Origin: Actinomycetes bacterium
Lineage (GTDB): Bacteria > Actinomycetota > Acidimicrobiia > Acidimicrobiales > JAJZJN01
NCBI GenBank assembly: GCA_021851165.1
Contig: JAJZJN010000001.1
Coordinates: 1 to 52,804, forward strand
DNA: 52,804 nucleotides
Direction: 5' to 3'
This document shows positions 9,666-47,425 of the stretch, piece after piece; the stretch's first letter is position 1; every line of letters begins with the position of its first letter. A model generated the notes under the pieces. It was not told the DNA's origin and made no database searches. It saw only the letters and a program-made list of their open reading frames with translations. The position numbers and the translations under genes are program-made.

Positions 9666-10484
9666 GTGGATCCACCGGTAGCGCTCAGCATTGCCGGTTC
9701 CGATTCCGGCGCCGGAGCCGGCATCCAAGCCGACCTGAAGACGTTCGCAGCGCTGGGCGTGTTCGGGACGTGCGCTATCACCGCGCTCACCGCCCAGAAC
9801 ACAGCCGCGGTCCTTGGAGTGGCTCGAACCGCTACGGACTTCGTGGAACTGCAGATCCAGGCGGTGCTGGCTGATTTCAGGGTAGCGGCAGTGAAGACCG
9901 GCATGCTCGCTACGACGGAGACAATTGCCATGGTCGCTCGAAAGGCAGCAGCCGGGGAACTGCCCAACCTCGTGGTGGACCCGGTGCTCGTGTCTTCCAG
10001 CGGGACTCCCCTGCTCGACTCCGCGGGGGTAAATGCCTATCGCGAGCTGCTCCTGCCCAACGCCTTCGTGGCTACACCCAATCTGTACGAGGCCGCCCTT
10101 CTCACAGGCAGGTCAGCCGGCAGCATCACGGACATGAGGACCATGCGGCAGGCGGCAGAGGACCTTGCCTCACTCGGCATCGCGACCGTCGTGGTAAAAG
10201 GCGGTCATCTAGGCGGCTCCGAGGCTCCGGACATCGTCCTGTGCCGAGGAGAGCTGGCCATCCTCGATGCGCGGCGAACGGCGACGGCCAACGATCACGG
10301 CACTGGATGCAGCCTTTCCTCTGCAATAGCAGCTCGCTTGGCATGGGGCGATGACCCGCTGGAGGCCGCTAGGAAAGCCAAATCCTACGTTACGCGTGCA
10401 ATCCGAGGCGCCAGCGGCTGGAGGCTCGGAGCCGGGCATGGCCCCCTCGACCACTTCGGCTGGAATCCCGACCAGGCGCCGTAG
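9666..10484 (+). CDS. thiD: Hydroxymethylpyrimidine/phosphomethylpyrimidine kinase
   Basis: [28 protein letters not shown] and [12 protein letters not shown] motifs of the ThiD/PdxK ribokinase fold. Confidence 0.9.
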
Positions 10485-10508
10485 CAGCTGTGAGCCTAGC
10501 ATGGGTCG

Positions 10509-11294
10509 ATGACTTCCGAGGCTGCGAGCGACCATGACCCCGCGGAGCCCCACGGGCCAAGCCAGGATGCCCCGGCCGGCAGGGGACGCACGGAACGTGC
10601 ACGCCAGGCCATTTCTGCACGAGCACATGATCGGCAGGTTGCTGCCGCCATCAAGGGTCTCGATAGGCGGGAGCGTGCGCTCGGATTGGTTGCCGCAGGA
10701 ATGGTGGCTGCCCTGTGGCTGCTGCTTACGGTCCCTACGCTTCTCAATCCCCCGAAGCACCTGAAGAAGGGGCAACTGGATGCGACCCAGATCGGCATCT
10801 ACCTGCTGGTAGGCCTGGCACTGGCGGCGCTGGTGGCTGTTGCGACCCTGCTGCGTCGCCGGGCTCTGCTCGGCTTTGCCGTATTGTTCGCCGGCGCGTC
10901 GTTCGGGGGGCTGTTCCTCCTGGCACTGCCCTTCTGGGCCTTCGGAGCATGGCTCCTCTGGAGAGCATTCATCACACAACGGGCGGCTGGTGCACCGGCA
11001 CATGCGGGTGGTGCCCCCGGCGGCATCCAGCGGAGTCCGGGCCGCGGGGGGCTTCTCGGCGGCATGTTCTCCCGTCGGAGGAACCCGGATGACACTGCCT
11101 ACCCTCACTCTGCGAGTCCTACCCGTGTCGGCGCCAAGTCGGCATCGAGACGCGAGAGGTCCACTGCCACGTCCGACCGCCAGCCGCCGACGCCGTCCAA
11201 GCGCTATACCCCTCCCAAGCCTCCCGCCAGAGCCACGCCCAAGCCTACGCCCAGACGTTCCAGGATGGGCAAGGCCGGGCAGCCGGATTCATAG
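10509..11294 (+). CDS. Hypothetical membrane protein (about 4 TM helices) with a basic Pro-rich tail
   Basis: Clear hydrophobic helices (LGLVAAGMVAALWLLLTV, IGIYLLVGLALAALVAVATLL, LLGFAVLFAGASFGGLFLLALPFWAFGAWLLW). Codon third positions are G/C-rich in this frame. The competing antisense 299-aa ORF is Arg/Pro/Gly junk. Confidence 0.55.
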   Translation: MTSEAASDHDPAEPHGPSQDAPAGRGRTERARQAISARAHDRQVAAAIKGLDRRERALGLVAAGMVAALWLLLTVPTLLNPPKHLKKGQLDATQIGIYLLVGLALAALVAVATLLRRRALLGFAVLFAGASFGGLFLLALPFWAFGAWLLWRAFITQRAAGAPAHAGGAPGGIQRSPGRGGLLGGMFSRRRNPDDTAYPHSASPTRVGAKSASRRERSTATSDRQPPTPSKRYTPPKPPARATPKPTPRRSRMGKAGQPDS

Positions 11295-11329: not shown

Positions 11330-12004
11330 TCATGGCCCCGGCAGCAGCGCCGAGCGGAGCAGGCCGAGGATCTCGGCCCGCCGGCGCACGAGGGAACGGG
11401 CTGTGGGCTCCTCGCCCAACGCCTTCAGGACATCGACCTCGGTCACCATCCCAATCACCGTCGAGTAGATCGCCAGCAGCAGCAGACGTGGCTCGTAGTG
11501 TCGCATGTGCCCTTCGTCCATTTCAGCGATGAGAAAATCCGACGCCCTGACCACCAGCGGGTCGAGGGCGCCGATGAACCTTGCAGCCGCGGGCGGGCCG
11601 AGCCTGCTCACTTCCCGTACCAGCCCCAGGAGCTCTGGCCGGCTCGCCGCAAGACGGAACACCGATCTGACGACGGCCTCCACGCGGAGCCAACCGTCGC
11701 CCGCGCCATCCAATGCTTCCTCCAGCACACCGGCCAGGTCGACCGCGGCCTGGTCGATCACTGCCTCTAGCAGCACCTCCTTTGACGGAAACCAGTACAA
11801 GATGCTCTGCTTGCGCATACCCAGTAAATCCGCAAGGGCGTCGAGCGAGGTACCGTCATAGCCTCTGGAGCCAAATGATCCCATAGCGGCGTCGAGGATG
11901 CGCGCGCGGGTATCACCCCTCCCCTTCGGATTCCCCGAAGCGAGGCCTTTAGCGTTGCTGCCACCTGTAGACGGCTGTGAACGCGGGATGGTCGACATAC
12001 TCAC
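11330..12004 (-). CDS. TetR-family transcriptional regulator
   Basis: HTH region TRARILDAAMGSFGSRGYDGTSLDALADLLGMRKQSILYWFPSKEVLLEAV. Start is the GTG at 12004 or the ATG at 11998. Divergent from the lipid cassette. Confidence 0.9.
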   Translation of the reverse strand: MSMSTIPRSQPSTGGSNAKGLASGNPKGRGDTRARILDAAMGSFGSRGYDGTSLDALADLLGMRKQSILYWFPSKEVLLEAVIDQAAVDLAGVLEEALDGAGDGWLRVEAVVRSVFRLAASRPELLGLVREVSRLGPPAAARFIGALDPLVVRASDFLIAEMDEGHMRHYEPRLLLLAIYSTVIGMVTEVDVLKALGEEPTARSLVRRRAEILGLLRSALLPGP

Positions 12005-12018
12005 CTACCATATGGTAG
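12005..12018. promoter_or_regulatory. Perfect 14-bp palindrome CTACCATATGGTAG, candidate TetR operator
   Basis: Read directly. It fills most of the 23-bp gap between the TetR start (12004) and the FAR-HAD ORF start (12028). Confidence 0.5.
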
Positions 12019-12027
12019 ACAATCGAG

Positions 12028-14595
12028 GTGCCAGGCGACACAATGCCTCCCGACCGCAGTCCCGGATCGGACACGGCTCGACCGGCGACGGAGCACCTGC
12101 TGCCGTCCGTCGCGGGTGCGCTGGCAGGAACCCGCATATTCGTTACGGGTGCCACCGGTTTCCTCGGAACTGCCCTGGTGGAACGACTGCTGCGCGCGGT
12201 ACCGGAGTGCAAGGTCGTAGTCCTCGTGCGACCGACACGGCGCGCTTCGGCCATAGAGAGGACGCGGCGCGAGATACTCCGCAACGATTGCTTCGATCGC
12301 CTCCGCATCGAGCTTGGCGAGACGTTCGATGACCACATGGCCGAACGCCTGACTGCCGTCGCGGGTGATGTCTCCACCGATGGCCTTGGCCTTGACGAGG
12401 AAGGGCTACGGATCCTCGCCTCTTGCGACACAGTCGTCCACTCTGCTGCTGCGGTGGCATTCGATGTGCCCCTGGACTCCGCTGTAGAGGTCAACCTGCT
12501 CGGTCCGTCCCGTGTGGCAGCCGCCATCGAGTCAGTGGCAGGAATGCGGCAGGCTGCCTATCCCGACGCCAGAGCAACGCATCTGATATCAGTCTCCACC
12601 GCCTACGTGGCTGGAACCCATCAGGGCGAAGCCACAGAAACCCTGGCAACCGATGCGATGAGCTCCAGGGCACGCTCTCGGACCCACACGACGGTCACCA
12701 CCGAGGTAGATATTGCAGCCGAGGTCGCCGCTGCACGGCGCTTGCGATCGCAGCTCGAAAGCTCCTCCCGTTCACCGGAGAACCTCGTCGGTTTCACCAA
12801 GGGCGCACGGCGCGAGCTGGGGTCCGCCGGTACCCACCTGCTGGCGGAGCGCGCTGAGAAGCTACGAGCCGACTGGGTTCGCTCCAAGCTGGTCGAAGCC
12901 GGAAGGGCCAGGGCACTGGCACTCGGCTGGCCCGACGCGTATGCCTTCACCAAAGCTCTCGGTGAGAGGGAGCTGATAACCAAGCACGCAGAGCGCCTTG
13001 CCAGAGCCGGTCGTGGACCGGCTGTCGACACGCTCCCCCAAGCGGGCATCCCCATCACCATCGTCCGTCCATCCATCATCGAGTCAGCCTTGGCAGAGCC
13101 GAGACCCGGATGGATTCGCGGCTTTCGCATGGCCGAGCCGATCATCATCTCGTATGCCCGTGGCCTGCTGAAGGAGTTTCCCGGCGTCCCCGAGGGAGTG
13201 GTCGACGTGATCCCGGTCGACCTCGTGGTCGCTGCGATCATCATCGCTGCTGCCGCAGGGCCCGACCCGTCGGGTCCTGCCGTCTACCACGTCGCCTCAG
13301 GGGTGAGAAATCCCCTGCTTTACGGCCAGCTGGTCGACCTGGTCCAATCCTGGTTCACGGAACACCCGTTGTACGATCCCGATGGCCAACCGATAGAGGT
13401 GCCGGCATGGTCCTTCCCCGGACGGGGACGGGTCCAGCGCCAGCTACACAGGACAGCCAAGGGTCTCGGCTTCGTAGAGCGTGTCATAGGCTCGCTCCCC
13501 GTACGCGGCCACCAGGCAGACCTTGCGTCGCGCGTCGAGGAACGCAGGGTGCTAGCCGAGCGTGCCCTCGGCTACGTAGAGCTCTATGGCGCCTACACCG
13601 AGACCGAGGCACGTTTCAGGGTGGACAGGCTCCTCGAGCTCGCGTCGAGATTGACCGCCGCCGACCGTAAGTCCTTTTGCTGCGACCCAGCAGTGGTGGA
13701 CTGGCCACACTACGTTCACCACATCCACCTTCCCTCAGTGGTCGATCACGCCCGGGTCCGCACCACCTCTGCGCGCACGGCAAGATCGACGCGCCAGGAG
13801 CGCTCTACGCGTGCGATCCTCGCAGACCAGCGGCACCTCGCGGCGTTCGATCTCGAGAACACCCTCATATCGTCGAATGTGGTCGACTCCTATGCCTGGC
13901 TCGCCAGCCGTCACCTATCGACACTCGACCGGATCCTGCTGACCGGACATCTGCTACGCGAGACGCCCGGACTTCTTGCCCTGGACAGGCGGGACCGGGG
14001 GGACTTCCTCCGAAGCTTCTACCGCCGCTACGAGGGAGCTCCTCTCGATCTCCTCCGAGCAGATGCCCGGGAGATGTTCGACCAGCTCCTATTGGTCAAG
14101 TCCTTCCCAGCGGGTATCGCCCGAGTCAGGGCACACCGCGCACTTGGCCACCGCACGGTCCTGATCACAGGCGCTCTCGACTTCGTCGTGGAGCCCCTGC
14201 GGCCACTGTTCGACGAGGTCGTCTGCGCTCGCCTCGGCGTGGAGAACGGCCGCCTCACCGGGCGGCTCGAGGAGCTCCCTCCGACCGGCGAGGCGCGCGC
14301 GCTACTCCTGGCGGCCTACGCGGACGCAGAAGGCCTCGACCTCGCCGAAGCTGTTGCCTACGCGGACTCGGCCTCGGACCTCCCCATGCTCGAGGCCGTA
14401 GGTTTTCCGGTTGCCGTCAACCCAGAAGCGAGGCTCGCGACTATCGCCAGACGCCGGGGCTGGCATATCGAGCACTGGGCAAGGTCACCTGGTGACGCCA
14501 GCCCCGTGCTTCCAATGGCTCCGCAGGACCGCGCTGCTCGTCGCTCCCCCGGATCTGGGCGCCCGCGGGCCAACGCCCCATGGGGACCGCTATGA
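12028..14595 (+). CDS. Fatty acyl-CoA reductase (NAD-binding 4 / male-sterility type) fused to a C-terminal HAD-IB hydrolase domain
   Basis: N-terminal half has IFVTGATGFLGTALVERLL and YAFTKALGE (YxxxK). C-terminal half has HAD-IB motifs FDLENTL (motif I, Glu at the Asp+2 position), ITGALDFVVEPL and YADSASDLPMLEAVGFPVAVNP. The start could instead be the ATG at 12043. Confidence 0.88.
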   Translation: MPGDTMPPDRSPGSDTARPATEHLLPSVAGALAGTRIFVTGATGFLGTALVERLLRAVPECKVVVLVRPTRRASAIERTRREILRNDCFDRLRIELGETFDDHMAERLTAVAGDVSTDGLGLDEEGLRILASCDTVVHSAAAVAFDVPLDSAVEVNLLGPSRVAAAIESVAGMRQAAYPDARATHLISVSTAYVAGTHQGEATETLATDAMSSRARSRTHTTVTTEVDIAAEVAAARRLRSQLESSSRSPENLVGFTKGARRELGSAGTHLLAERAEKLRADWVRSKLVEAGRARALALGWPDAYAFTKALGERELITKHAERLARAGRGPAVDTLPQAGIPITIVRPSIIESALAEPRPGWIRGFRMAEPIIISYARGLLKEFPGVPEGVVDVIPVDLVVAAIIIAAAAGPDPSGPAVYHVASGVRNPLLYGQLVDLVQSWFTEHPLYDPDGQPIEVPAWSFPGRGRVQRQLHRTAKGLGFVERVIGSLPVRGHQADLASRVEERRVLAERALGYVELYGAYTETEARFRVDRLLELASRLTAADRKSFCCDPAVVDWPHYVHHIHLPSVVDHARVRTTSARTARSTRQERSTRAILADQRHLAAFDLENTLISSNVVDSYAWLASRHLSTLDRILLTGHLLRETPGLLALDRRDRGDFLRSFYRRYEGAPLDLLRADAREMFDQLLLVKSFPAGIARVRAHRALGHRTVLITGALDFVVEPLRPLFDEVVCARLGVENGRLTGRLEELPPTGEARALLLAAYADAEGLDLAEAVAYADSASDLPMLEAVGFPVAVNPEARLATIARRRGWHIEHWARSPGDASPVLPMAPQDRAARRSPGSGRPRANAPWGPL

Positions 14596-15851
14596 AGGGT
14601 CTCCTGTTCGAGCGGAATCTCCCCCGTTTCGCTGCCGCACGGGTCGTATCGGCCATCGCAGGCTCTGGGCGTGGAAGCGCAGTCGGCCCGCTGCGCCTCG
14701 TCGACATGCCATCCCCGGAGCTTCCCGGGCCCGGGTGGTACCACGTCCGTCCCATCCTCGCAGGGATCTGCGGCTCGGACCTGGCTACCCTCGACGGACG
14801 GGCCTCCCGGTACTTCGAAGACTTCGTCAGCTTCCCGTTCGTCCCTGGACACGAGGTGGTGGGCCTGGTAGAGGGCGGCGACGCTGCTCTGCCCAGCGGA
14901 ACGCGTGTCGTCTTGGAGCCGGTGCTCGGCTGCATTGCGAGAGACATCCATCCTCCCTGCAATGCCTGTGCCGAGGGGCATACCGGCAATTGCGAGCGCG
15001 TCGCATTCGGGCACCTGGCTCCTGGGCTCCAGATCGGCTACTGCGCCGACACCGGAGGTGGATGGTCGAAGGGCGGGCTGGTTGCTCATGCGAGCCAACT
15101 TCACCGGGTTCCCGATTCCCTCGACGACGACAGTGCCGTCATGGTGGAGCCCACCGCTTGCGCTGTGCACGCAGCACTTCGGGCGCTCGAGCCATGGGAA
15201 AGCACCGGCGCTTCGCAAAACAGCGGTGAGGCGTCGCCACCCATGGTCGCAGTGGTCGGATCAGGGACCCTCGGTCTTACAACGATCGCGGCATTGCGCC
15301 ACTTCGGAGGTCAGGTCGTCGTATTGGCAGGCGCCAAGTACTCGCATCAGAAGGAGATGGCAATCGCGCTGGGAGCAGACGTGGCTGTCTCCCCGGGCGA
15401 GCTCGCGCGCGAGGTCAGGCGGAGAAGCCGCTCGCTCGTCGCCTCTGGGCATTCCACCAGTGGCGCCGACGTCGTGGTGGACTGCGTGGGAACTGGAGAG
15501 TCGATCAGCGAGTCGCTCGCCATGGTCCGCCCCAGAGGGCGCGTGGTCCTGGTGGGTATGCCGTCCAAGGTTGACATCGACCTTGCCTCTCTTTGGCATC
15601 GGGAGGTTGGCCTCGTAGGAGCGTACGCCTACGGCACGGAGCAGCTGTCCGGCCGTACTCGCTCGACATTCGACCTCGCGATCGAGCTGGCTGGTGCAGC
15701 AGGCATAGGGAGGCTGGTCTCGGCTCACTATCCCCTGGAACGTTTCGAGGAAGCGGTGGCCCACGCCGGGGCTGCCGGTAGGCGCGGTGCTGCGAAGATC
15801 GTCTTCGACTTGCGGGCACCGATCGTGAAAGGACCGACCAATGAGCCCTAG
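14592..15851 (+). CDS. Zinc-dependent medium-chain dehydrogenase (threonine/sorbitol dehydrogenase-like)
   Basis: GICGSD, PGHE and structural-Zn CNACAEGHTGNC motifs, plus a VAVVGSGTLG Rossmann fold. ATGA overlap with the FAR-HAD stop at 14592-14595. The ORF-track ATG at 14580 is an alternative. Confidence 0.9.
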   Translation: MKGLLFERNLPRFAAARVVSAIAGSGRGSAVGPLRLVDMPSPELPGPGWYHVRPILAGICGSDLATLDGRASRYFEDFVSFPFVPGHEVVGLVEGGDAALPSGTRVVLEPVLGCIARDIHPPCNACAEGHTGNCERVAFGHLAPGLQIGYCADTGGGWSKGGLVAHASQLHRVPDSLDDDSAVMVEPTACAVHAALRALEPWESTGASQNSGEASPPMVAVVGSGTLGLTTIAALRHFGGQVVVLAGAKYSHQKEMAIALGADVAVSPGELAREVRRRSRSLVASGHSTSGADVVVDCVGTGESISESLAMVRPRGRVVLVGMPSKVDIDLASLWHREVGLVGAYAYGTEQLSGRTRSTFDLAIELAGAAGIGRLVSAHYPLERFEEAVAHAGAAGRRGAAKIVFDLRAPIVKGPTNEP

Positions 15852-17430
15852 GCCCGGATTCGTCCTGGACGTCGACCGATCAAGCCCGCCCACGCTGTTC
15901 TGGCATGGTGAGGGATACCGCCTCGAGAAGCTTCCACCCGGCCGGAGCCGCGTCGTGTATGGCCCGGAGCCCCTCCGGTCGCTCGACGACCCTGTAACAG
16001 CCATACGCGACGCTCTGTGCAACCCTCTTGGTGAGAGCGAGCCGTTGCCGGCTCTGCTCCGCCCAGGCATGCGTCTAACGATCGCATTCGACGACGTCTC
16101 GCTGCCCCTTCCTCCTATGCGAAGCCCCGACGTGCGCCAGCTGGTGATCGAGCAGGTTCTCGACATGGCGGCCGCGGCCGGCGTCGACGATGTGGTCCTG
16201 GTGGCAGCCCTGGCGTTGCACAGGAGAATGACCGACGCGGAATTGCGCCATGCCCTCGGCAATAGGATCTTCGACGCGTTCGCCCCTCACGGCCTGCTCA
16301 CCCAGCACGATGCCGAGGACCCGTCCAACCTGGTCTACCTAGGCCGTACCGACCAGGGGGAAGATGTCGAGCTCAACCGCCGAGCAGCTACCTCGGACCT
16401 CCTCGTGTACGTGAACATCAACCTCGTCGCCATGGACGGTGGTCACAAGAGCGTCGCCACAGGTCTGGCCAGCTACCGGAGCATCCGCCATCACCACAAT
16501 GCCCGGACCATGCAGCAGAGCCGCTCGTTCATGGACCAGCACCACTCGGAGCTCCACTCGTCCAACTGGCGCATGGGCCGCCTGATCGCTTCGAATGGAG
16601 TGAAGGTGTTCCAAGTAGAGACCACCTTGAACACCGACACGTTCCCCGAGCAATTCAGGTTCCTCCAGCGCCGCGAGTGGGAGTGGACGATCAGGGACAG
16701 AGCAGCCTTCCTGGCGAGCTCAACAGCTCTCGGCCGCACTCCGGACAAGCTTCGGCGCTCGATCTTCCAGTCCATCAAGTCTCCCCATGCCATGACCTCC
16801 GTCCAGGCCGGGGAGGTGGAGGCCGTCCATGCACGCACCACCCAGAGCGTCTACGCCCAGCAGCTCGTGAGCGTGTCAGGCCAGACCGACATCCTGACAA
16901 TGGGTCTCCCTTACATCTCGCCGTACAACGTCGACTCGATCATGAACCCCATACTCGTGGCGTGTCTCGGTCTCGGCTACTTCTTCAACCTGTACCGCGG
17001 CAAGCCGCTCGTACGCGAGGGCGGGGTGGTAATAATGAGCCACCCCACGCCTTGGGCGTTCCATCCCGGACACCATCCAAGCTACATCGATTTCTTCGAG
17101 AACGTGCTCGCCGAGACCACCGATCCACTCCAGATCGGCAAGTTCGAGGAGGCGTATGCCACCGACCCGTGGTACGTGCATCTCTACCGCACAGGTCATG
17201 CCTACCATGGCGTCCATCCGTTCTATATGTGGTATTGGTGCGCGCATGCCCTCGAGCACCTCGGCGGGGTGATAGTCGTGGGAGGCGACCGGGCCGCGGT
17301 GCGCAGGCTCGGCTTCAAACCCGCCTCCACGCTCGACGATGCTCTGGAGATGGCCGAGGACGTCGTAGGTCGCAGCCCATCGATCACCCATGTGCACAAC
17401 CCACCGCTCCTCATGGCGGACGTGACATGA
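15841..17430 (+). CDS. LarA-like (lactate racemase N-terminal domain / DUF2088) protein, 529 aa
   Basis: LALHRRMTDAEL and VAMDGGHKSVATGLASYRSIRHHH resemble the LarA GxHR and SGGxK(NPN-tethering Lys)...His regions, aligned from memory. It overlaps the ADH stop by 11 nt and the next gene by ATGA. Confidence 0.75.
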   Translation: MSPRPGFVLDVDRSSPPTLFWHGEGYRLEKLPPGRSRVVYGPEPLRSLDDPVTAIRDALCNPLGESEPLPALLRPGMRLTIAFDDVSLPLPPMRSPDVRQLVIEQVLDMAAAAGVDDVVLVAALALHRRMTDAELRHALGNRIFDAFAPHGLLTQHDAEDPSNLVYLGRTDQGEDVELNRRAATSDLLVYVNINLVAMDGGHKSVATGLASYRSIRHHHNARTMQQSRSFMDQHHSELHSSNWRMGRLIASNGVKVFQVETTLNTDTFPEQFRFLQRREWEWTIRDRAAFLASSTALGRTPDKLRRSIFQSIKSPHAMTSVQAGEVEAVHARTTQSVYAQQLVSVSGQTDILTMGLPYISPYNVDSIMNPILVACLGLGYFFNLYRGKPLVREGGVVIMSHPTPWAFHPGHHPSYIDFFENVLAETTDPLQIGKFEEAYATDPWYVHLYRTGHAYHGVHPFYMWYWCAHALEHLGGVIVVGGDRAAVRRLGFKPASTLDDALEMAEDVVGRSPSITHVHNPPLLMADVT

Positions 17431-18440
17431 GCACTCGAAGCGGGGTTCCCGACGGCATTGGCCGCCTCGCCAATGTGACGGGCCTTCACCCAAGCGAGCT
17501 GGCAGGACGCCTGGGCCGTATCTTTGCCCGAGACTTTCCATGGTCGGCGCCTGCATGGCCGGTGGGCCTCGAGCGCCCTGCCCCCGACCGGCGGCTCGGA
17601 GTGGACTACGACACCTCATGGGCACGCGCCTACCCAGCACGCCTCGCAAGAGCGGTGATGACCGACAACCTGACCAGGCCGCTCATGCATGCTCTAGCCA
17701 CACCCACAGTGCGCGGCGAAGAGGTGCTCGATCAATGTGTATCGCCCACGATATTCGTGGCAAACCACTCCAGCCATATCGACACCGGCTTGCTCGTCTC
17801 CATCCTGCCTGCCCGCCTGCGACACCGGACAGTGGTAGCCGCTGCAGCCGACCACTTCTTCGACAGGCGCTGGAAGGCTCATCTCTGGGCATTCGCCCTC
17901 GGGGCTGTTCCCATAGAGCGCCACCGCGTGAACCGGAGATCTGCCGCACTCGCCACAGACCTCGTGGACGACGGATGGAACCTCATCATCTTCCCCGAGG
18001 GGGGCCGGACTCGAGATGGGTGGCTACAGCCTTTCCGGGGTGGTGCTGCATATGTGGCTGCCCACACCGGCAGGCCTGTCGTGCCAGCCTATATTTCCGG
18101 CACGCGCGAGATACTGGCCAAGGGGTCGAGCCGCTTGCGGCGCAATCCAGTGACCGTGACCTTCGGCCGTCCGCTGTGGGTGGAACCCGGCGAGGGTTCA
18201 CGACACTTCGAGCGCCGGATCGAAGAGGCTGTCGCCTCGCTGGCAGACGAGGCGGCTTCAGACTTCTTCTCGGCGAGAAGGCGCGCTTACAGCGCAAAGA
18301 CTCCGAGCCAGCGCGGGCCGGATGCCTCTCCATGGAGGCGGGCCTGGGCCCTCGCACCACGGGTGCCGGCCCAGCCAGGTGGAAACAACCATGCCTATCC
18401 GCCAGGCATGCCACACACGAATCTCAACACGCCCCGCTGA
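17427..18440 (+). CDS. PlsC-family (lysophospholipid / glycerol-phosphate) acyltransferase
   Basis: HX4D motif NHSSHID and the FPEGGRT block. The ATG at 17427 overlaps the LarA-like TGA (ATGA). The upstream part of the 587-aa track ORF (16677-17426) is an out-of-frame read-through of the LarA-like gene. Confidence 0.85.
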   Translation: MSTRSGVPDGIGRLANVTGLHPSELAGRLGRIFARDFPWSAPAWPVGLERPAPDRRLGVDYDTSWARAYPARLARAVMTDNLTRPLMHALATPTVRGEEVLDQCVSPTIFVANHSSHIDTGLLVSILPARLRHRTVVAAAADHFFDRRWKAHLWAFALGAVPIERHRVNRRSAALATDLVDDGWNLIIFPEGGRTRDGWLQPFRGGAAYVAAHTGRPVVPAYISGTREILAKGSSRLRRNPVTVTFGRPLWVEPGEGSRHFERRIEEAVASLADEAASDFFSARRRAYSAKTPSQRGPDASPWRRAWALAPRVPAQPGGNNHAYPPGMPHTNLNTPR

Positions 18441-18479: not shown

Positions 18480-20840
18480 TCACCGGCGCCAGCCAAGACG
18501 AGACATCAGCCGGGTCCGGCGGGCAAGCACGGCAGCGAAGCGCTCGGACCGCAACGCTGTCTCCTCACTGTCGCGCAGTGGGGGAAGGGCATCGCCTGTC
18601 GCCATCTGGAGAAGAGCATCGGCAAGTGAGGGATTACGTGCCAGTACCGGGCCGTGCAGATAGGTTCCTATCACCTTGCCCACCCAAGCTCCGTCGGCCG
18701 GCACACCTCGGCCCTCGATCGGAGCCGGTCGATCCAGGCCACGCCCCACACCAGGACGAGGCGCTCGGGACTGCAGTGACGTTCCGTTGCCCACGCCGAC
18801 CAGCACACGGCCGAGTGGCTCTACGCCCGCTCCAAGCGTGGTCACCCCGGCATGATTCTCGAAACCGGTCATCCGCTCGATCAGCGAGCTATGCCACAGC
18901 TCCGTTGCCGTCGAGCCCACCATGGTGTGCGCCACTCCTGATAAGCCGATTCCAGCCTGCTCACCAGCAGTGGCGCTCCATTCCGAGCGCCAGGGGTCGG
19001 AGACCACCTCGCCGACGGCCCTCCGACCTCCTCCCCTGACCGTCGTCACATCCACGATGCCCAAGCCGGAGCGCACCTGGCCGCCGAGACCAGGAAAGGA
19101 GGTGCCAATGATCTGGAATCCCGCGCACACGGCCAGCAGCACCGCGCCCCGTGAATGAGCCCGAGCAAGAGAGCCTTCGGCTGCAAGGATCTCAGTCGCC
19201 TCGACCTGTGGAGCGTCCTCGCCTCCACCGATGCAGTAGATGTCGCCGGTTTCGGGCAGAGGGTCGGTCGAGAAGGCTTCCACCATCTCCACGGCATATC
19301 CCCTCCTGCGGGCCCTCTCGGCGAGCACGAGCGCATTCCCGCCGTCTCCATAGGTGCCGAGAAGATCCGGATGCACCACCACCACCCGCAGAGCGGACCC
19401 GACAGGTCCCGAGCGCGTTGCTGCCGGCATGACACGCACGTCCGTCAGTCCATCTGCGCTCGTCCCCCGAGGCGGAAATGGCCGAGCAATCCCCATCACC
19501 CCTGTAGCTCCCATCACCCCTTTCGCTCCGGTGAGGAAGCCCGGCTGACCGGATCGGTGTCGGTGCACCCTCGAGAGCTTCTGCCGGAGATCTTGGAATG
19601 CGGTGTAGTTACCGATGTACTCCACCTGCGACGTCCCGAGCCACGTTGCCGCCGTTCCAAGCGCTTCGAGCTGCTCCGGCACGACTACGTGCTCCACAGC
19701 GCCGTATAGCAGGCGCACACCCAGGTCACGGCAGCGCTCGCCCGTCGCCACCACCTTGCGCCCGCGGAGCTGCTCGAAGGGAACGTCCCACAGCCACGAG
19801 GGATCATGCCCGTCTGCCACCCTGGCGTTTATCCCGATCACTACGGCTGGCGCATCCCCTTCGATCATGTCGAGCAGCTCGGTCCAACCAGCCGGGTTCT
19901 TGGCCAGGAGCATCCTCACCGCAGCCGATCCATAGGGCACGACCGCGTACCTGCCCTCGACCTCGGCCACAGGTGCCATCGCATCCAAGGCCGACCGGAG
20001 ATCGATGCCGAGCGCTGCCGCGCCTACCGCTGCCATGGATGCATTCGCCCGGTTGAACCGCCCTGGTATTCCAAGCACTATCGGCAACCGCTCGCCGGCC
20101 CTCGTCAACAGGTCCGACCCGTCTACCTCGAAATTCGGCTCTGGACGCGCGAAGCCACAGTCGCACGCCCAGCCCTTCCCGTCGAATGAGCCCCTCCCGT
20201 CGAATGAAACCCTCCCCCCACACGCCGGGCAGCCCGCCGCGTCCATCCTCCACAGCTCACCGGCAGCTACCCATACGACATTGGCGCTACCGGCAGCTGC
20301 CCATACCACGAGCGGATCGTCGGCGTTGGCGACCACCACAGCACCCGCTGCACGCGCCAGCGCCTCTCGCCAGCGCGTGGCCAGCATCCGAACCTCGCTG
20401 ACGCGATCGAGCTGATCCCTTGACAGGTTGAGCAGCACGATTACCTTCGGTGCCGTCGCAGTCATGACCAGGCCCAGATACGCCTCGTCCACCTCGAGGA
20501 CGGCCGGGGCACCCAGTGGAGCCTCGGCTAGCGCCGAGACCAGGCCCTGAGGCAGGTTGGCCCCTGATCCGGAAGTTGCAACGACCCCTCCGGGCGCCAA
20601 GCGCGCTACAGCCGCTGCAAAGAGCCTCGTCGTGGTGGTCTTGCCATTTGTCCCGCTCACGAGAGCCACCTGGCGGCCTCGGGCCAGCTCGGTGAGGAGG
20701 GATGGATCCAAAGCAAGACCAACATGCCCCCCTATGACGGATCCGCCCCCGAGGCCAAGCCGCCGTGAGGCTGCGCCAACAGCCCTGGTGGCCGCGGCAG
20801 CCACGGATGCCCTCTTCGCGTGTGTGCGGGGGGGGCTCAC
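18480..20840 (-). CDS. murT: MurT-GatD fusion: lipid II isoglutaminyl synthase ligase subunit fused to the glutamine amidotransferase subunit
   Basis: aa 1-425 are a Mur-ligase fold (VSGTNGKTTTT), a Cys4 ribbon (CPACGG...CDCG) and a DUF1727-like end. A linker of about 55 aa follows. aa 483-786 are CobB/CobQ-type GATase (LLAVCAGFQIIG nucleophile Cys, YLHGPVLARNP His). The frame is continuous with no stop. Confidence 0.9.
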   Translation of the reverse strand: MSPPRTHAKRASVAAAATRAVGAASRRLGLGGGSVIGGHVGLALDPSLLTELARGRQVALVSGTNGKTTTTRLFAAAVARLAPGGVVATSGSGANLPQGLVSALAEAPLGAPAVLEVDEAYLGLVMTATAPKVIVLLNLSRDQLDRVSEVRMLATRWREALARAAGAVVVANADDPLVVWAAAGSANVVWVAAGELWRMDAAGCPACGGRVSFDGRGSFDGKGWACDCGFARPEPNFEVDGSDLLTRAGERLPIVLGIPGRFNRANASMAAVGAAALGIDLRSALDAMAPVAEVEGRYAVVPYGSAAVRMLLAKNPAGWTELLDMIEGDAPAVVIGINARVADGHDPSWLWDVPFEQLRGRKVVATGERCRDLGVRLLYGAVEHVVVPEQLEALGTAATWLGTSQVEYIGNYTAFQDLRQKLSRVHRHRSGQPGFLTGAKGVMGATGVMGIARPFPPRGTSADGLTDVRVMPAATRSGPVGSALRVVVVHPDLLGTYGDGGNALVLAERARRRGYAVEMVEAFSTDPLPETGDIYCIGGGEDAPQVEATEILAAEGSLARAHSRGAVLLAVCAGFQIIGTSFPGLGGQVRSGLGIVDVTTVRGGGRRAVGEVVSDPWRSEWSATAGEQAGIGLSGVAHTMVGSTATELWHSSLIERMTGFENHAGVTTLGAGVEPLGRVLVGVGNGTSLQSRAPRPGVGRGLDRPAPIEGRGVPADGAWVGKVIGTYLHGPVLARNPSLADALLQMATGDALPPLRDSEETALRSERFAAVLARRTRLMSRLGWRR
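19492..19527. repeat. 18-bp tandem duplication (x2) in the MurT-GatD linker
   Basis: cccatcacccctgtagct / cccatcacccctttcgct, encoding (minus strand) GVMGAT-GVMGIA. Confidence 0.85.
20173..20208. repeat. 18-bp tandem duplication (x2) inside the MurT zinc-ribbon loop
   Basis: cccttcccgtcgaatgag / cccctcccgtcgaatgaa, encoding SFDGRG-SFDGKG between the CPAC and CDC pairs. Confidence 0.85.
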
Positions 20841-22351
20841 GACCCCGGCCGGTGACCAGGCGGGTAGGTACGGGCCAGATCCTCGGCAGAAGGGTCTCGG
20901 AGAGCCTCGGCGGGCACCAGCCGCTCGATCGCATCGAGCAGGCGCCGGGTCGCCGCCCGTGGATCGCTGCTGCCACCAGGGAGAGCCATCGGCATGCCTA
21001 CCCGCACCACGACCTCCGGAGGATGTGTGATGTTACATACTGCAGGCACCCGCGCCGAGCGAGGCCACACCTTCTCGGTGCCCCAGATGCCGATCGGCAC
21101 GACCGGGGCCCCCGACATCGCCGCCAGCCGCGCAGCCCCGGTGCGCCCCTTCAGCCTCGGGTCGAAGAACTCCTCTCCCCGCGGGATGGTGCCCTGTGGC
21201 AGGATCACGACGACCTCGCCGGCGCCGAGAGCCCTGGCAGCCTCGCGCAGCGGCCTGTCCGAGCCACTTCCACGATCAACCGGTATCCCACCGAGAGCCC
21301 GCGCTATAGGGCCGATAATCACGGCATCCAGCATCTCCCTCTTGGCAAGGAAGCGAACCGGCCGCCCGATACGAGCTGCAAGCACGCCGAGCGCCGCAAC
21401 GTCGAAATAGCTCCGATGGTTCGCTGCAAGGATCACCGCGCCGGTAGCAGGTATGTTCTTCTCCCCTGTCACGTTGAAGCGTGCGTAGGGGAAAGCTGCC
21501 GGACGCACCAGCGGCCGCAGCAGGTGGTATGGCTCCAAGCCGGCCACGGTCGGCACGCCCTCCGGATGGTTCCAGTGCTCGACCGGCCAGCGCCGCAGGG
21601 CCGCAAACACCCTCAGGCGCGGATCCGGGTTGACTGCATGGGGGAACCCAACCGCGTTCATGAGCGGCAGGTCGAACACGCTGTCGGAGTAAGCATGGCT
21701 ACGAGCAAGGTCGATCCCCTCTGCCCCGCAGAAGCTACGCACCGCCCTCAGCTTGCCGGACGACCAGACGAAGTCGCCTTCTATGCCCCCCGTCAGCACA
21801 CCATCACTGCGTGCGTATCTCGTTGCCACGAGATCGTCGAAACCGAGCAGCTCCACAAGAGGCCAGATGAGATCAGCCGGGGTCGTGGTGGCGAGCACCA
21901 GCCTTGCTCCCTCTGCCCGGTGCTCTTCGAGCACGCCCATCGCGTAGGGCTGGATCATCCGAGCCAGGACAGGCGCTGCACGCTCACCAGCCCTGCGGAA
22001 CGCGTCCAGAGGCCAGCCCCTGGTGAAGCTCGCGGCCAGCCTCACCAGGGCCATGAACGGCAAGGTCTCGCCCAGCCGGTCGTAGGCGGCATAGGCGAGC
22101 CTGTCACCCGGCATCCTCATGCGCGAGCTCATGAGCCCCTCTGCCACCATGGCTTCGGACAACACCGGTCCGCTCGCTCCCGTGAGGAGGGTCCGGTCGA
22201 GATCTACGAATACGGCTCTCGTAGTGTCCACGCACCGCACGTTACCGGATGGCCGAGCCGCCCCCGGCGGCTGTGGACCCGGAGGCAACCAGGCCCCGGA
22301 CGCGACGAAGGGACCGGAGGGGGGGTATCCGGTCCCTTCGCACCGACTCAC
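20837..22351 (-). CDS. HAD-IB hydrolase / PlsC acyltransferase bifunctional protein (M. tuberculosis Rv2483c-type architecture)
   Basis: N-terminal half has FVDLDRTLL (canonical DxDxT) and YSDSVFDLPLMNAVGFPHAVNP. C-terminal half has NHRSYFD (HX4D) and the ILPQGTIPRG block. Its TGA overlaps the murT-gatD GTG (GTGA at 20837-20840). The N-terminal ~40 aa are low complexity, so the true start may be downstream (about 22231-22240). Confidence 0.88.
   Translation of the reverse strand: MSRCEGTGYPPSGPFVASGAWLPPGPQPPGAARPSGNVRCVDTTRAVFVDLDRTLLTGASGPVLSEAMVAEGLMSSRMRMPGDRLAYAAYDRLGETLPFMALVRLAASFTRGWPLDAFRRAGERAAPVLARMIQPYAMGVLEEHRAEGARLVLATTTPADLIWPLVELLGFDDLVATRYARSDGVLTGGIEGDFVWSSGKLRAVRSFCGAEGIDLARSHAYSDSVFDLPLMNAVGFPHAVNPDPRLRVFAALRRWPVEHWNHPEGVPTVAGLEPYHLLRPLVRPAAFPYARFNVTGEKNIPATGAVILAANHRSYFDVAALGVLAARIGRPVRFLAKREMLDAVIIGPIARALGGIPVDRGSGSDRPLREAARALGAGEVVVILPQGTIPRGEEFFDPRLKGRTGAARLAAMSGAPVVPIGIWGTEKVWPRSARVPAVCNITHPPEVVVRVGMPMALPGGSSDPRAATRRLLDAIERLVPAEALRDPSAEDLARTYPPGHRPGS
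22310..22336. promoter_or_regulatory. Perfect 9-bp inverted repeat GGGACCGGA-N9-TCCGGTCCC
   Basis: Read directly. It lies 15-41 nt inside the longest-ORF 5' end of the HAD-PlsC gene, next to the AT-rich LysR divergent region. It could be an operator or 5' stem-loop if the true start is downstream. Confidence 0.35.
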
Positions 22352-22463: not shown

Positions 22464-23435
22464 ATGGAGCTGCGACATCTCCAGGCCCTGGTGGGCGTAG
22501 CCGAGAACGGCTCGTTTTCCGCTGCCGCAGACGCCATCGGGACCGTCCAGTCGAACATCTCGGCTCATGTGGCGCGCCTCGAAGCCGAGCTGAAGGTCAA
22601 GCTGGTCGACCGCGGATCAGGTCACCTGACCCCTGAAGGCGAGGTAGTGGTAGCACGTGCCTACAGAGTGTTCGCAGAGCTTGACTCGCTCGGAGCCGAC
22701 CTGGGTGCATTGCGTGCCGAAGTGTCCGGAACAGTTAGGATCGGCATGATCGGCACCACGGCCCGCTGGCTCGTGCCACGCCTACTTGCCGCGGCTCTGG
22801 CCCTTCACCCGAAGCTCAGGGTAGTGGTCTCCGAGGGCACTACAACTGGGCTCGAGCCTCTCCTTGGTGCGGGGAGGCTAGACGCCGCAATCGTGACCCT
22901 ACCCGTGGCAGGGCGTGAACTCAACTTCGAGCCGCTGTTCGACGAGGAGATCGTCCTCGTCGTTCCGGAGCGCAACGATCCCACACTTGGCATGAGCCGG
23001 GTAGGCTTGCCATTCCTGGCGGGCCTGGACCTTATCCTTCCCGCTCCTGGCACTCCCTTTCGCGCCGAGATCGACTCTGCAGTCAAGCCTTCCGGTGTGC
23101 GCCTGCACCCGCTAGCCGAGCTGGACGGGGTCAGACTGATAGCGTCGCTTGCCTTCGAGGGCTACGGCCCCGCTCTCCTGCCCGCTACAGCAGTGCCTGG
23201 CCACCTGCGACCCCGCTTCCGCCTCGTGGCGGTAGACGGGCTCCCACGCCGTCAGGTGGGTCTGGTGGTACGCAGCCGAGGTCTCCCGTCAGCCGCAACC
23301 CGTGCGGCGCTCACGACGCTACGCGATGTTCTTTCCGATAGCACCAAGCTCCCCGAGGGCATCCATCCCCCGACCGTTCCGAGCTCCGACCGGATGGACG
23401 GCTCGGTACGCGCCATCGGCGCCCCGAACGGCTGA
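22464..23435 (+). CDS. LysR-family transcriptional regulator
   Basis: MELRHLQALVGVAENGSFSAAADAIGTVQSNISAHVARLEAELKVKLVDR HTH plus a periplasmic-binding-like effector domain. It is preceded by an unusually AT-rich stretch (22381-22463) containing TACA-N4-TGTA at 22437-22448. Confidence 0.9.
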   Translation: MELRHLQALVGVAENGSFSAAADAIGTVQSNISAHVARLEAELKVKLVDRGSGHLTPEGEVVVARAYRVFAELDSLGADLGALRAEVSGTVRIGMIGTTARWLVPRLLAAALALHPKLRVVVSEGTTTGLEPLLGAGRLDAAIVTLPVAGRELNFEPLFDEEIVLVVPERNDPTLGMSRVGLPFLAGLDLILPAPGTPFRAEIDSAVKPSGVRLHPLAELDGVRLIASLAFEGYGPALLPATAVPGHLRPRFRLVAVDGLPRRQVGLVVRSRGLPSAATRAALTTLRDVLSDSTKLPEGIHPPTVPSSDRMDGSVRAIGAPNG

Positions 23436-43786: not shown

Positions 43787-43837
43787 ACGGTAGCTGGCTT
43801 GTAGCAGGCCAGTGCGTTGGAACCGAGAGGAGCTGCC

Positions 43838-46225: not shown

Positions 46226-46279
46226 CTCGCGACGCAGTAGTAACCGCCAAGCACGTGTGGTCGCCTGGCTCCGACGCGG

Positions 46280-47425
46280 ATGGCTGAACCGGCAAGTGAA
46301 CCGAGGCCTGCCGAGGGTTCGGGACCGATCCTCGCCGTGAACGTAGGATCGAGCAGCCTGAAACTCTCCCTCGTCGACAGTGGCTATAGCACCTTGGCCA
46401 TGCGTGAGATCGACACTTCAGCCACCCGTGGCAGCATTCATGCCCGCGATCTCGCATCCCACCTGAGCGAGCTCGGCCCATTTGCGGCAAGCAGCCACCG
46501 CATTGTCCACGGCGGCGAGCGCTTCACCTCACCCGTCATCGTCGACCAACAGGTAATGAGCGACCTCGAGGACTTGGTGGACCTGGCCCCCCTGCACCAA
46601 CGCCGAGCGCTGGACGTGCTCGCCGCACTCATATCTGCCGTGCCAAATATACCGGCGATCGCGTGCTTCGACACTGCTTTCCATGCCACCATGCCTCCAG
46701 GCGCATCGACCTATGCTCTCCCTGCTGCCTGGCGGGTGGGTCTCGGCGTCAGGCGCTACGGCTTTCATGGCTTGTCCTATGCCTACGCGACCATGCGTAG
46801 CTCGGAGATGCTGGGGCACTCGCCCGCGGACCTCCGCCTGGTCATAGCGCACCTCGGCTCCGGTGCGTCGCTTGCAGCAGTTGCAGGAGGGCAGTCGGTG
46901 GACACCACCATGGGTTTCACGCCGCTGGAGGGGCTCGTCATGGCCACGCGTCCAGGCAACGTCGACCCAGGAGCCTTGACATGGCTCCTACGCAACGGGG
47001 TCAGCCCTGCCGACCTGGAGCATGGCCTCGATCACGAATGTGGACTGGCCGGCTTGACCGGCAGCCCGGACATGCGGGGCGTGCTCGCGGCATCCGCCTC
47101 CGGCGACCTCGATGCCCGCTTGGGGATCGAGGTCTACATGCACCGGCTCCGGGCGCTGGCAGCGTCCATGGTAGCGGCCATGGGAGGGCTGGATGCGCTT
47201 GTCCTCACCGGCGGGGTGGGCGAGAGAAGCCCTTACGTGCGCGAGCACCTGGCCCGCGGCCTCAGGTTTCTCGGCGTGGAAATCGATCCTGCCTTGAACC
47301 GTGACGCAACCTCCGGGGACTTCGTGGTGAGTCCTGCCGATGCCGCAGTCGCTGTCGTGGTTGTCGCTGCACGCGAGGACATCGAGCTCGCCCGGGGAGC
47401 GTACGAGCTGATCGCGCCAGGGTGA
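46280..47425 (+). CDS. ackA: Acetate kinase
   Basis: ILAVNVGSSSLKLSLV, HRIVHGGERF, LAPLHQRRAL, CFDTAFHATMP, RRYGFHGLSY and AHLGSGASL signatures. It lies directly downstream of xfp. Confidence 0.93.
   Translation: MAEPASEPRPAEGSGPILAVNVGSSSLKLSLVDSGYSTLAMREIDTSATRGSIHARDLASHLSELGPFAASSHRIVHGGERFTSPVIVDQQVMSDLEDLVDLAPLHQRRALDVLAALISAVPNIPAIACFDTAFHATMPPGASTYALPAAWRVGLGVRRYGFHGLSYAYATMRSSEMLGHSPADLRLVIAHLGSGASLAAVAGGQSVDTTMGFTPLEGLVMATRPGNVDPGALTWLLRNGVSPADLEHGLDHECGLAGLTGSPDMRGVLAASASGDLDARLGIEVYMHRLRALAASMVAAMGGLDALVLTGGVGERSPYVREHLARGLRFLGVEIDPALNRDATSGDFVVSPADAAVAVVVVAAREDIELARGAYELIAPG

Follow-up and report, generated by a model that had tools for sequence, protein, structure and literature searches.

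In Myxococcus xanthus, the formation of alkyl and vinyl ether lipids requires elbD (PMC9131029), a gene of the elbABCDE operon, whose genes elbA through elbE are MXAN_1531 through MXAN_1527 (PMC13012113). The aldehyde i15:0 was detected in the wild type and not in elbD mutants, and fatty alcohols were not detected (PMC9131029). Of the proteins of this operon, ElbC has been depicted as one of unknown function since 2014 (PMC9131029). Here, we analyzed a 52.8-kb stretch of a contig of an Acidimicrobiales bacterium (JAJZJN010000001.1; the whole stretch of 52,804 nucleotides is called the window below), in which a TetR-family repressor gene is divergently oriented from four genes, hereafter the cassette. 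These genes encode a fusion of a fatty acyl-CoA reductase (FAR) with a HAD-IB phosphatase domain, a Zn-dependent medium-chain dehydrogenase/reductase (MDR) of the alcohol dehydrogenase type (Zn-ADH), a homologue of LarA (LarAH), and a PlsC-type acyltransferase of the acylglycerolphosphate acyltransferase (AGPAT) type.

In LarA numbering, K184 is the covalent tether of the cofactor, a nickel-pincer nucleotide (NPN), while H200 is the nickel ligand. Groups 14-16 of the LarA homologues have been labelled "unknown function" since 2020 (Desguin 2020, PMC7583248). Dataset S2 of that work places Ilumatobacter YM304_22240, Frankia Franean1_4168 (LarAH14), Kribbella Kfla_3040 and Rubrobacter Rxyl_2107 in group 14 and MXAN_1529 in group 15. 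According to its Table S1, group 14 is surrounded by AGPAT, HAD, Zn-dehydrogenase and thioester-reductase COGs; group 15 by COG0451, HAD and long-chain acyl-CoA synthetase; and group 16 by AGPAT and HAD, with no Zn-dehydrogenase COG (COG1063).

Two other routes to ether lipids serve as references. The eukaryotic/MXAN_1676-type route, with FAR, GNPAT, alkyl-dihydroxyacetone phosphate (alkyl-DHAP) synthase (AGPS) and acyl/alkyl-DHAP reductase, has the same predicted logic as the cassette, i.e., a reductase, an HX4D acyltransferase, a ketone reductase and a phosphatase; it uses the flavoenzyme AGPS for a role that is vacant in the cassette and that the LarA homologue would take. The plasmalogen synthase PlsA/PlsR and the glycerol ester reductase Ger (PMC13159169), like the cassette, have been proposed to yield bacterial glycerolipids with an ether link at sn-1, but these enzymes are unrelated to those of the cassette, and the plsA type comes from anaerobic bacteria. 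The problem addressed here is the formation of the sn-1 ether bond in aerobic bacteria outside the AGPS route, for which ElbC/LarAH is a testable candidate.

LarAH and the ElbC family

The LarAH of the window matched NF052592, the LarAH14/15/16 family model, with 879.8 bits over positions 1-519 of 520, the curated cut-off being 740 bits. The proteins at the ElbC position in Anaeromyxobacter (839) and Corallococcus (836) and the Rubrobacter homologue (861) also passed this cut-off. Because elbA is MXAN_1531 and elbE is MXAN_1527, elbC is MXAN_1529, the protein listed in group 15; the "15" in the NCBIfam name is presumably this same group. Based on these model scores and the group listing, LarAH and ElbC (MXAN_1529) belong to one equivalog family, and two families of unknown function, ElbC since 2014 and LarAH groups 14-16 since 2020, are one. 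In the literature that we searched by full text, no paper that named ElbC or ElbD also mentioned lactate racemase, DUF2088 or the nickel-pincer cofactor. With respect to that literature, the identification of ElbC with the LarA superfamily is new, as is the description of a four-gene, TetR-controlled form that is widespread in Terrabacteria.

The relationship to LarA itself, on which the preliminary description of this locus depended, held on proper alignment and at the level of the fold. LarAH matched Pfam Lar_N (1.2e-39), and its PDB sequence matches covered both domains of the single-histidine LarAHs 9q2u (6.7e-38) and 9q3j. The top 19 Foldseek PDB matches of its AlphaFold2 (AF2) model were all of the LarA family, with TM-scores up to 0.68. 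The N-termini of the listed group 14 proteins are nearly identical to that of the window protein. The closest characterized structures are those of LarA_Sp and LarA_Bw (9q2u, 9q3k, 9q3j; PMC12611868), which, like LarAH, have a two-domain fold of ~500-530 residues, only one catalytic His, and, as conserved residues, an Asp, this His, the Lys that tethers NPN and the His that binds Ni. They belong to group 17 and LarAH to group 14, with an identity of only ~20%; the R75 position is hydrophobic in LarAH and Lys in LarA_Sp and LarA_Bw, and the genomic context of LarAH consists of lipid genes instead of glycolysis or sugar genes.

The surrounding genes were compared with those of ElbC. In Myxococcota/Acidobacteriota loci, the order is HAD, LarAH, FAR, ~2 kb, AGPAT, with HAD preceding LarAH in 43/51 of them. 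At the Anaeromyxobacter oryzae locus, the Pfam matches run Epimerase, HAD, Lar_N, then NAD_binding_4, Sterile, AMP-binding, PP-binding and Acyltransferase in succession, then Epimerase, which is the elbA-elbE order as described in PMC9131029 and PMC13012113. At locus L239, FAR and AGPAT are the first and last domains of a 1597-aa ElbD-like protein. A Pyrinomonadaceae (Acidobacteriota) metagenome-assembled genome (MAG; L235) also has the elb-type arrangement, and an elb cluster has been proposed for the ether lipids of Acidobacteria subdivision 4.

The cassette and elbABCDE (Lorenzen 2014, as reviewed in PMC9131029 and PMC13012113) share the NF052592 LarA protein (ElbC 47-50% identical in related myxobacteria), a HAD-IB phosphatase (ElbB), a FAR with a C-terminal Sterile domain and an AGPAT domain (both in ElbD), one extra NAD(P) oxidoreductase, and the lack of AGPS. 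In the window, the HAD-IB domain is coded ~1.4 kb upstream of LarAH, which places an ElbC-family LarA beside an ElbB-type HAD, and FAR and AGPAT are both present, as separate proteins. The two systems differ in that the FAR of the cassette is fused to HAD, whereas that of elb is fused to acyl-CoA synthetase, acyl carrier protein and AGPAT domains; the cassette lacks the adenylation and carrier-protein domains of ElbD and has its acyltransferase in a gene of its own; its oxidoreductase is a Zn-dependent MDR and not of the short-chain (SDR) type of ElbE/ElbA; and, unlike the elb operon, it is predicted to be controlled by a divergent TetR. AMP-binding, PP-binding and Epimerase-family genes were found neither in the cassette nor in the rest of the window. 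Regarding AGPS, no FAD-linked oxidase family domain was detected among the scanned predicted genes of the window, and no AGPS appeared among the gene families conserved around LarAH in a clustering of 62 diverse loci. The window contained no PlsA/PlsR or Ger either.

From this comparison, the cassette is most likely a split and reduced elb-type cluster with Zn-ADH in the place of ElbE. The preliminary description, which cited ElbD, was correct on the content of the cassette, but it overlooked that the elb operon carries a LarA homologue, ElbC, together with the HAD protein ElbB, and that the gene neighbourhood of this LarAH group had already been tabulated in Table S1 of Desguin 2020. In view of this, the cassette represents a variant of an operon already known rather than a new pathway.

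A related locus is found in Rubrobacter taiwanensis (L256, 5074-13257), where FAR-HAD, Zn-ADH and LarAH are present, with the same FAR-HAD fusion and Zn-ADH as in the cassette and a group 14 LarAH 57% identical to the window protein. Unlike the cassette, this locus has MarR and MOSC genes between Zn-ADH and LarAH and no TetR or operator. Sinninghe Damste and co-workers reportedly proposed, in a 2023 abstract, that the Rubrobacter FAR-HAD/Zn-ADH/LarAH locus is an operon for 1-O-alkyl glycerol phosphate. Papers citing Sinninghe Damste 2023 attribute ~46% ether-linked core lipids to Rubrobacterales and membranes rich in 1-O-alkylglycerols to Rubrobacter, and they report the stereochemistry of the Rubrobacter ether lipids as undetermined. 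The alkyl-glycerolipid reading first offered for the cassette is strengthened by these parallels, given that the same LarA subfamily stands beside HAD and FAR...AGPAT genes in the elb operon and beside the FAR-HAD fusion and Zn-ADH in Rubrobacter, whose membranes the same papers describe as rich in 1-O-alkylglycerols.

The label "LarAH15" has been used for two different proteins (PMC11770544 vs PMC7583248). In the 2024 JBC paper, it denotes a gluconate 2-epimerase from Phytophthora, which falls in the GntE branch and not in group 15 of the 2020 paper, the myxobacterial ElbC clade; a gluconate-epimerase link was rejected on this basis, and the naming collision could mislead annotation transfer.

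Conservation of the four-gene unit

We collected 316 loci in four scans of one-genome-per-species contigs; the counts include some duplicates, as contigs were fetched repeatedly, and those of gene order take in only loci with enough flanking DNA. A direct search for LarAH homologues retrieved only relatives of at least 80% identity, and breadth came from a representative search and three scans seeded with distant members. The four-gene unit was co-conserved in ~180 loci from Acidimicrobiia, Actinomycetes, Rubrobacter, Dormibacterota and Chloroflexota. Upstream of LarAH, the Terrabacteria-type loci carried FAR in 178/179, HAD in 178/179 and ADH in 176/179 cases, and PlsC followed LarAH in 189/204 (Table 1). 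The set from the class Actinomycetes consisted of Nocardioides, Kribbella, Actinopolymorpha, Frankia, Mycobacteriales MAGs and Actinocatenispora, and the PlsC misses in the mixed set include Rubrobacter loci.

Table 1. Cassette genes found around LarAH in four sets of loci
Set of loci	FAR upstream	HAD upstream	ADH upstream	PlsC directly downstream
Acidimicrobiales	63/63	63/63	63/63	71/71
Actinomycetes class	30/30	30/30	30/30	34/34
Second Acidimicrobiia set	31/31	31/31	29/31	32/32
Rubrobacter/Dormibacterota/Chloroflexota/Solirubrobacteraceae	54/55	54/55	54/55	52/67

The four-gene cassette is a real conserved operon, and the co-conservation on which the preliminary description had made its reading depend extends across classes and phyla. 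In the clustering of open reading frames (ORFs) from the 62 loci, no further gene family common to the lineages was found within about -9 to +8 kb of the LarAH gene centre; therefore, the four-gene unit is self-contained. The thiamine genes upstream of the cassette in the window are not conserved with it, and the synteny of the downstream MurT-GatD, HAD-acyltransferase and LysR genes is limited to Acidimicrobiales. No form of the pathway is more reduced than the Terrabacteria-type cassette, which consists of four genes, contains neither adenylation nor carrier domains and has no further co-conserved partners; this makes it tractable for heterologous reconstitution.

Cassettes resembling those of Dormibacterota or Acidimicrobiales also appeared under the unlikely taxon labels Nitrosotalea, Micrarchaeaceae, Verrucomicrobiia, Eisenbacteria and Acidobacteriota (L299, L316, L279, L311 and L002), probably through mis-binning. 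A protein-level search of a plasmid collection gave no match.

The domain calls previously made for all cassette genes were confirmed by Pfam, NCBIfam and PDB comparison, and the peptide motifs quoted with them could all be read directly in the translations. FAR-HAD has NAD_binding_4 (3.7e-52, aa 39-404; motifs VTGATGFLG and YAFTK), followed by Sterile (aa 512-566, a weak match below the Pfam cut-off), and its best PDB match is the fatty acyl-CoA reductase 7eoz (3.3e-54). Its HAD-IB domain (aa 605-789; Pfam HAD 1.8e-27) passed TIGR01490 and matched 3fvv and SerB in the PDB; the nucleophile Asp and motif IV DSxSD are conserved, and motif I reads DLENT in the window protein vs DxDGT in other lineages. 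Zn-ADH has ADH_N (1.7e-13) and ADH_zinc_N (2.8e-18) with the motifs GICGSD and PGHE; it reached the cut-off of no NCBIfam equivalog, and the structures closest to it in the PDB are those of ketose reductase (1e3j), sorbitol dehydrogenase, L-idonate 5-dehydrogenase and threonine dehydrogenase. The PlsC-type acyltransferase contains HSSHID (HX4D) and FPEGGR.

A candidate ether-lipid pathway and its alternatives

We consider the assignment of the cassette to ether lipids likely. It is somewhat less certain, albeit still probable, that the cassette encodes a TetR-repressed, AGPS-independent pathway for 1-O-alkyl-glycerolipids that is the split and reduced counterpart of elbB-elbE. Our proposal that LarAH is the ether-forming catalyst is tentative. 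Slightly more doubtful is its extension to the whole ElbC family (LarAH groups 14 and 15), which may be the AGPS-independent ether-bond former of aerobic bacteria, with NPN borrowing a hydride from glycerol C2 in a redox-neutral coupling of a fatty aldehyde or alcohol to glycerol phosphate.

The residues of LarAH suggest what kind of chemistry could be expected. It keeps the equivalents of D72, H108, K184 and H200, as FDD, LALHRR, GGHK and RHHH at the aligned positions, and the last three of these equivalents are kept in 272/278 related loci. The equivalent of H174, the second catalytic His, is absent, with Asn residues near the aligned position. This agrees with the group 14 rows of Dataset S2, which have a gap at H174, Leu/Ile at R75 and Asn at K298 (PMC7583248), and with the absence of a second catalytic His from groups 14 and 15 (PMC12611868). 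The carboxylate ligands R75 and K298 are replaced in this LarAH group, so that the residue set for 2-hydroxyacid racemisation is incomplete. Because the second catalytic His and the carboxylate-binding residues are absent, racemisation of 2-hydroxyacids by LarAH is unlikely, and stereo-inversion at a 2-hydroxy centre, suggested in the preliminary description, loses ground. Since a single acid/base residue and the site of the hydride-carrying cofactor are kept and no carboxylate pocket is present, LarAH would be a "hidden redox" enzyme rather than a racemase.

The pathway would begin with the reduction of a long-chain acyl-CoA by FAR to a fatty aldehyde or alcohol. LarAH, with NPN tethered to the conserved Lys and coordinated by His, would then take a hydride from the C2-OH carbon of an intermediate derived from glycerol 3-phosphate (G3P), and this transient oxidation of C2 would activate C1 for the ether bond without AGPS. 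In one variant, the hemiacetal of the fatty aldehyde and G3P would lose water and the hydride would be delivered to the former aldehyde carbon, yielding 1-alkyl-DHAP. In a second variant, an AGPS-like acyl-to-alkyl exchange would take place on transiently oxidised 1-acyl-G3P, and the hydride would return to C2 on the same face. The first variant would fit the detection of the aldehyde, and not of alcohols, in M. xanthus and the loss of Zn-ADH in lineages with a degenerate LarAH, described below. Next, the ketose-reductase-like Zn-ADH, as the counterpart of ElbE in myxobacteria, would reduce the C2 ketone of alkyl-DHAP to 1-alkyl-G3P, the PlsC-type enzyme would acylate sn-2, and HAD-IB would remove the phosphate, leaving an alkyl(acyl)glycerol to be stored or to receive a head group. 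With TetR bound to CTACCATATGGTAG, both divergent promoters would stay repressed until a lipid ligand is present.

If this proposal is true, LarAH would be the first NPN enzyme that is neither a racemase nor an epimerase and the first acting on a lipid, nickel-pincer chemistry would extend beyond 2-hydroxyacid racemisation, and ether-lipid synthesis would be nickel-dependent in these bacteria. It would also be a second, convergent solution to the chemistry of AGPS. Many soil Actinomycetota, Dormibacterota and Chloroflexota would be predicted to make ether lipids, which bears on the sources of environmental alkylglycerol biomarkers.

Several observations weigh against the proposed pathway or against the catalytic part of LarAH in it. 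According to the review PMC9131029, elbC has never been individually mutated. The genes larB, larC and larE, absent from the 52.8-kb window, are likewise not among the COGs associated with groups 14-16 (PMC7583248, Table S1). The AF2 model of LarAH is of moderate quality (predicted local distance difference test score, 67.5), with a poorly defined C-terminal domain. The general acid/base of HAD (D+2) is Glu in Acidimicrobiales and Asp elsewhere. In the Rubrobacter locus, an AidB-like acyl-CoA dehydrogenase gene follows LarAH, and there is no adjacent PlsC. The NPN-loaded Frankia orthologue LarAH14 was inactive in seven 2-hydroxyacid racemase/epimerase reactions, a result that neither supports nor excludes the chemistry proposed here. 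Additionally, a degenerate clade, found in Propionibacteriales MAGs (L081-L086) and matching group 16 of Desguin 2020, has a LarAH that has lost the residues for catalysis (His), NPN tethering (Lys) and Ni binding (His); one such protein, P0138, scored 534 bits, below the NF052592 cut-off, and is still encoded between FAR-HAD and PlsC. Judging by these residues, LarAH has a non-catalytic role in some lineages, at least there. Zn-ADH is absent in 4/5 judged Propionibacteriales loci with a degenerate LarAH, in agreement with the lack of COG1063 around group 16 (PMC7583248, Table S1); this joint loss of LarAH residues and Zn-ADH is a weak hint from a small sample, and the only comparative one, that the dehydrogenase acts on the redox product of LarAH.

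The degenerate clade also bears on an alternative in which LarAH is a cofactor-less lipid-binding or scaffolding subunit and the ether bond is made by another protein, e.g., FAR or ADH acting on the hemiacetal. This alternative would explain why group-16-type copies without the H108, K184 and H200 equivalents stay between FAR-HAD and PlsC and why larB, larC and larE are not found nearby. We regard it as improbable, given that the retention of these three equivalents in several phyla argues for selection on cofactor chemistry. Moreover, while Frankia alni has a degenerate group 16 copy, FRAAL3757, a MAG labelled Frankia alni (L101) carries an intact cassette with a LarAH 62% identical to that of the window, so FRAAL3757 may be a derived paralogue.

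A true epimerase within an ether-lipid pathway, which would invert C2 of glycerol phosphate or 1-alkyl-glycerol phosphate in the manner of a G3P to glycerol 1-phosphate conversion, has in its favour that all characterized LarA enzymes invert a C2-OH centre, and the reportedly undetermined stereochemistry of the Rubrobacter ether lipids would leave room for it. Nevertheless, inversion needs an acid/base on both faces, while groups 14 and 15 have no His174 equivalent and the window protein has Asn nearby. It would also leave the ether-forming step without a candidate enzyme in a self-contained four-gene unit, and we hold this function to be unlikely.

An equally doubtful alternative is a wax-ester or fatty-alcohol module, in which FAR would make a fatty alcohol that the PlsC-type enzyme esterifies, with ADH and LarAH accessory or unrelated. 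The FAR, with its Sterile domain, is closest to the alcohol-forming fatty acyl-CoA reductase 7eoz, and TetR is weakly similar to acyl-CoA-sensing regulators such as FasR, both of which are compatible with such a module. However, no wax ester synthase/diacylglycerol acyltransferase (WS/DGAT) was found among the scanned window genes, and the module would explain neither the fixed association of HAD, ADH and LarAH with FAR across phyla, seen in 176-178 of 179 loci, nor the presence of the same LarA family inside a genetically validated ether-lipid operon.

Least probable is that the cassette makes another kind of lipid, either a long-chain 1,2-diol lipid, for which FAR would reduce a 2-hydroxyacyl-CoA, LarAH would convert the hydroxy-aldehyde to a hydroxy-ketone by a 1,2-hydride shift and ADH would reduce the ketone, or a lipid whose polyol or sugar-acid head group is remodelled by ADH and LarAH: the suggestion that single-His LarAHs may move a hydride to an adjacent site (Desguin 2020, PMC7583248), the polyol-dehydrogenase type of the ADH and the apparent carbohydrate link of the single-His group 17 enzymes are in its favour, but no 2-hydroxylase, sugar kinase, transporter or glycosyltransferase was co-conserved in the 62-locus clustering, and Myxococcus genetics tie the homologous operon to alkyl ether glycerolipids.

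Gene layout, operator and neighbouring genes

The coordinates of the cassette and its regulator are given in Table 2. As previously described, the four plus-strand genes form an overlap chain: the FAR-HAD stop and ADH start are joined by ATGA at 14592-14595, the ATG of LarAH overlaps the ADH stop (TAG, 15849-15851) by 11 nt and is preceded by the Shine-Dalgarno-like GAAAGGA, and the LarAH stop and PlsC start are joined by ATGA at 17427-17430. The divergent orientation of TetR and the perfect palindrome in the 23-bp gap (from GTG 12004 to GTG 12028) were likewise found as reported. Each of these two genes has alternative starts within a few codons (TetR, GTG 12004 or ATG 11998; FAR-HAD, GTG 12028 or ATG 12043), so the intergenic distance is 23-44 bp.

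Table 2. Coordinates of the cassette, its regulator and the predicted operator in the window
Feature	Position	Strand	Remarks
TetR-family repressor gene	11330-12004	-	Pfam TetR_N 3.3e-12; divergent from cassette; alternative start ATG 11998
Predicted operator palindrome CTACCATATGGTAG	12005-12018	.	perfect palindrome, 14 bp, within the TetR/FAR-HAD gap
FAR-HAD fusion gene	12028-14595	+	Pfam NAD_binding_4, Sterile, HAD; FAR part ~nt 12142-13725, HAD-IB part ~nt 13840-14394
Zn-dependent medium-chain dehydrogenase gene, polyol/ketose-reductase type	14592 (or 14580)-15851	+	Pfam ADH_N, ADH_zinc_N
LarA homologue (LarAH) gene, group 14, NF052592	15841-17430	+	Pfam Lar_N, NCBIfam
PlsC/AGPAT-type acyltransferase gene	17427-18440	+	domain aa 94-224, ~nt 17706-18098; Acyltransferase 4.7e-21

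We propose CTACCATATGGTAG as the predicted operator of the divergent TetR, which has an N-terminal helix-turn-helix, a divergent target operon and a palindrome conserved in orthologous loci. Based on shuffled sequence, the pattern CTACCANNTGGTAG would be expected 0.04x per window by chance. The operator core TACCANNTGGTA (TACCA-NN-TGGTA) was found in 48/80 related loci, sometimes twice, each time just upstream of the FAR gene, and a TetR orthologue with 54-76% identity occupies the equivalent divergent position in 45/80 of the closest Acidimicrobiales loci. Elsewhere the regulator differs: TetR lies downstream of PlsC in L105, L106, L109, L111 and L121, and Rubrobacter has MarR. A consensus promoter scan had as its sole find the promoter-like TAGACA-17-CACAAT, which overlaps the right arm of the palindrome; because its -10 element overlaps the ATG at 12043, this promoter cannot account for everything. 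Two mirror-image TATGGT hexamers within the palindrome resemble actinobacterial TANNNT -10 boxes and could serve both divergent genes; leaderless transcription from these boxes would be an alternative reading of the promoter.

A copy of the operator with one mismatch, CTACCTGCTGGTAG, is located at 10799-10812, ~1.2 kb from the operator, and may be due to chance or be a second TetR site. It sits in the overlapping ORFs 10509-11294 (+) and 10209-11108 (-), neither of which has a Pfam match.

The G+C content is ~65% across the window and shows no break at the cassette. Elsewhere, the window contains housekeeping genes unrelated to the cassette, including those for GOGAT, ThiG, ThiD, LysR, EAL proteins, P-type ATPases, FtsH and a phosphoketolase with acetate kinase, as well as a MurT-GatD fusion and a second fusion of HAD and acyltransferase. 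The last of these, at 20837-22351 (-), is a 504-aa HAD-IB and PlsC-type fusion beside a divergent LysR gene at 22464-23435 (+). It was rejected as a cassette member because its synteny is limited to Acidimicrobiales and it was missing around the cassette in the checked loci of the class Actinomycetes (L087-L123). In about half of the Acidimicrobiales loci, this fusion is found, usually with LysR, a few kb downstream from the cassette. The pairing of HAD-IB and AGPAT domains thus recurs in the window, with two different fusions. The architecture of M. tuberculosis Rv2483c is similar to that of the HAD-IB and PlsC fusion.

Downstream of the cassette, in the 786-aa ORF at 18480-20840 (-), MurT ligase domains (Mur_ligase_M, MurT_C) are joined to a glutamine amidotransferase domain of the CobB/CobQ type that resembles GatD; in lipid II isoglutaminyl synthase, MurT and GatD are usually separate subunits. 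At 30808-35364 (-), a P-type ATPase of unusual length (1518 aa) is encoded, with its core starting from ~residue 766 and a long N-terminal extension that has one weak HMA match; alongside are a second P-type ATPase gene (27717-30209) and one for a universal stress protein. Finally, a phosphoketolase (XFP) gene and, directly after it, an acetate kinase gene occupy 43817-47425 (+), with FtsH and two Pyridox_ox_2/Usp pairs nearby.

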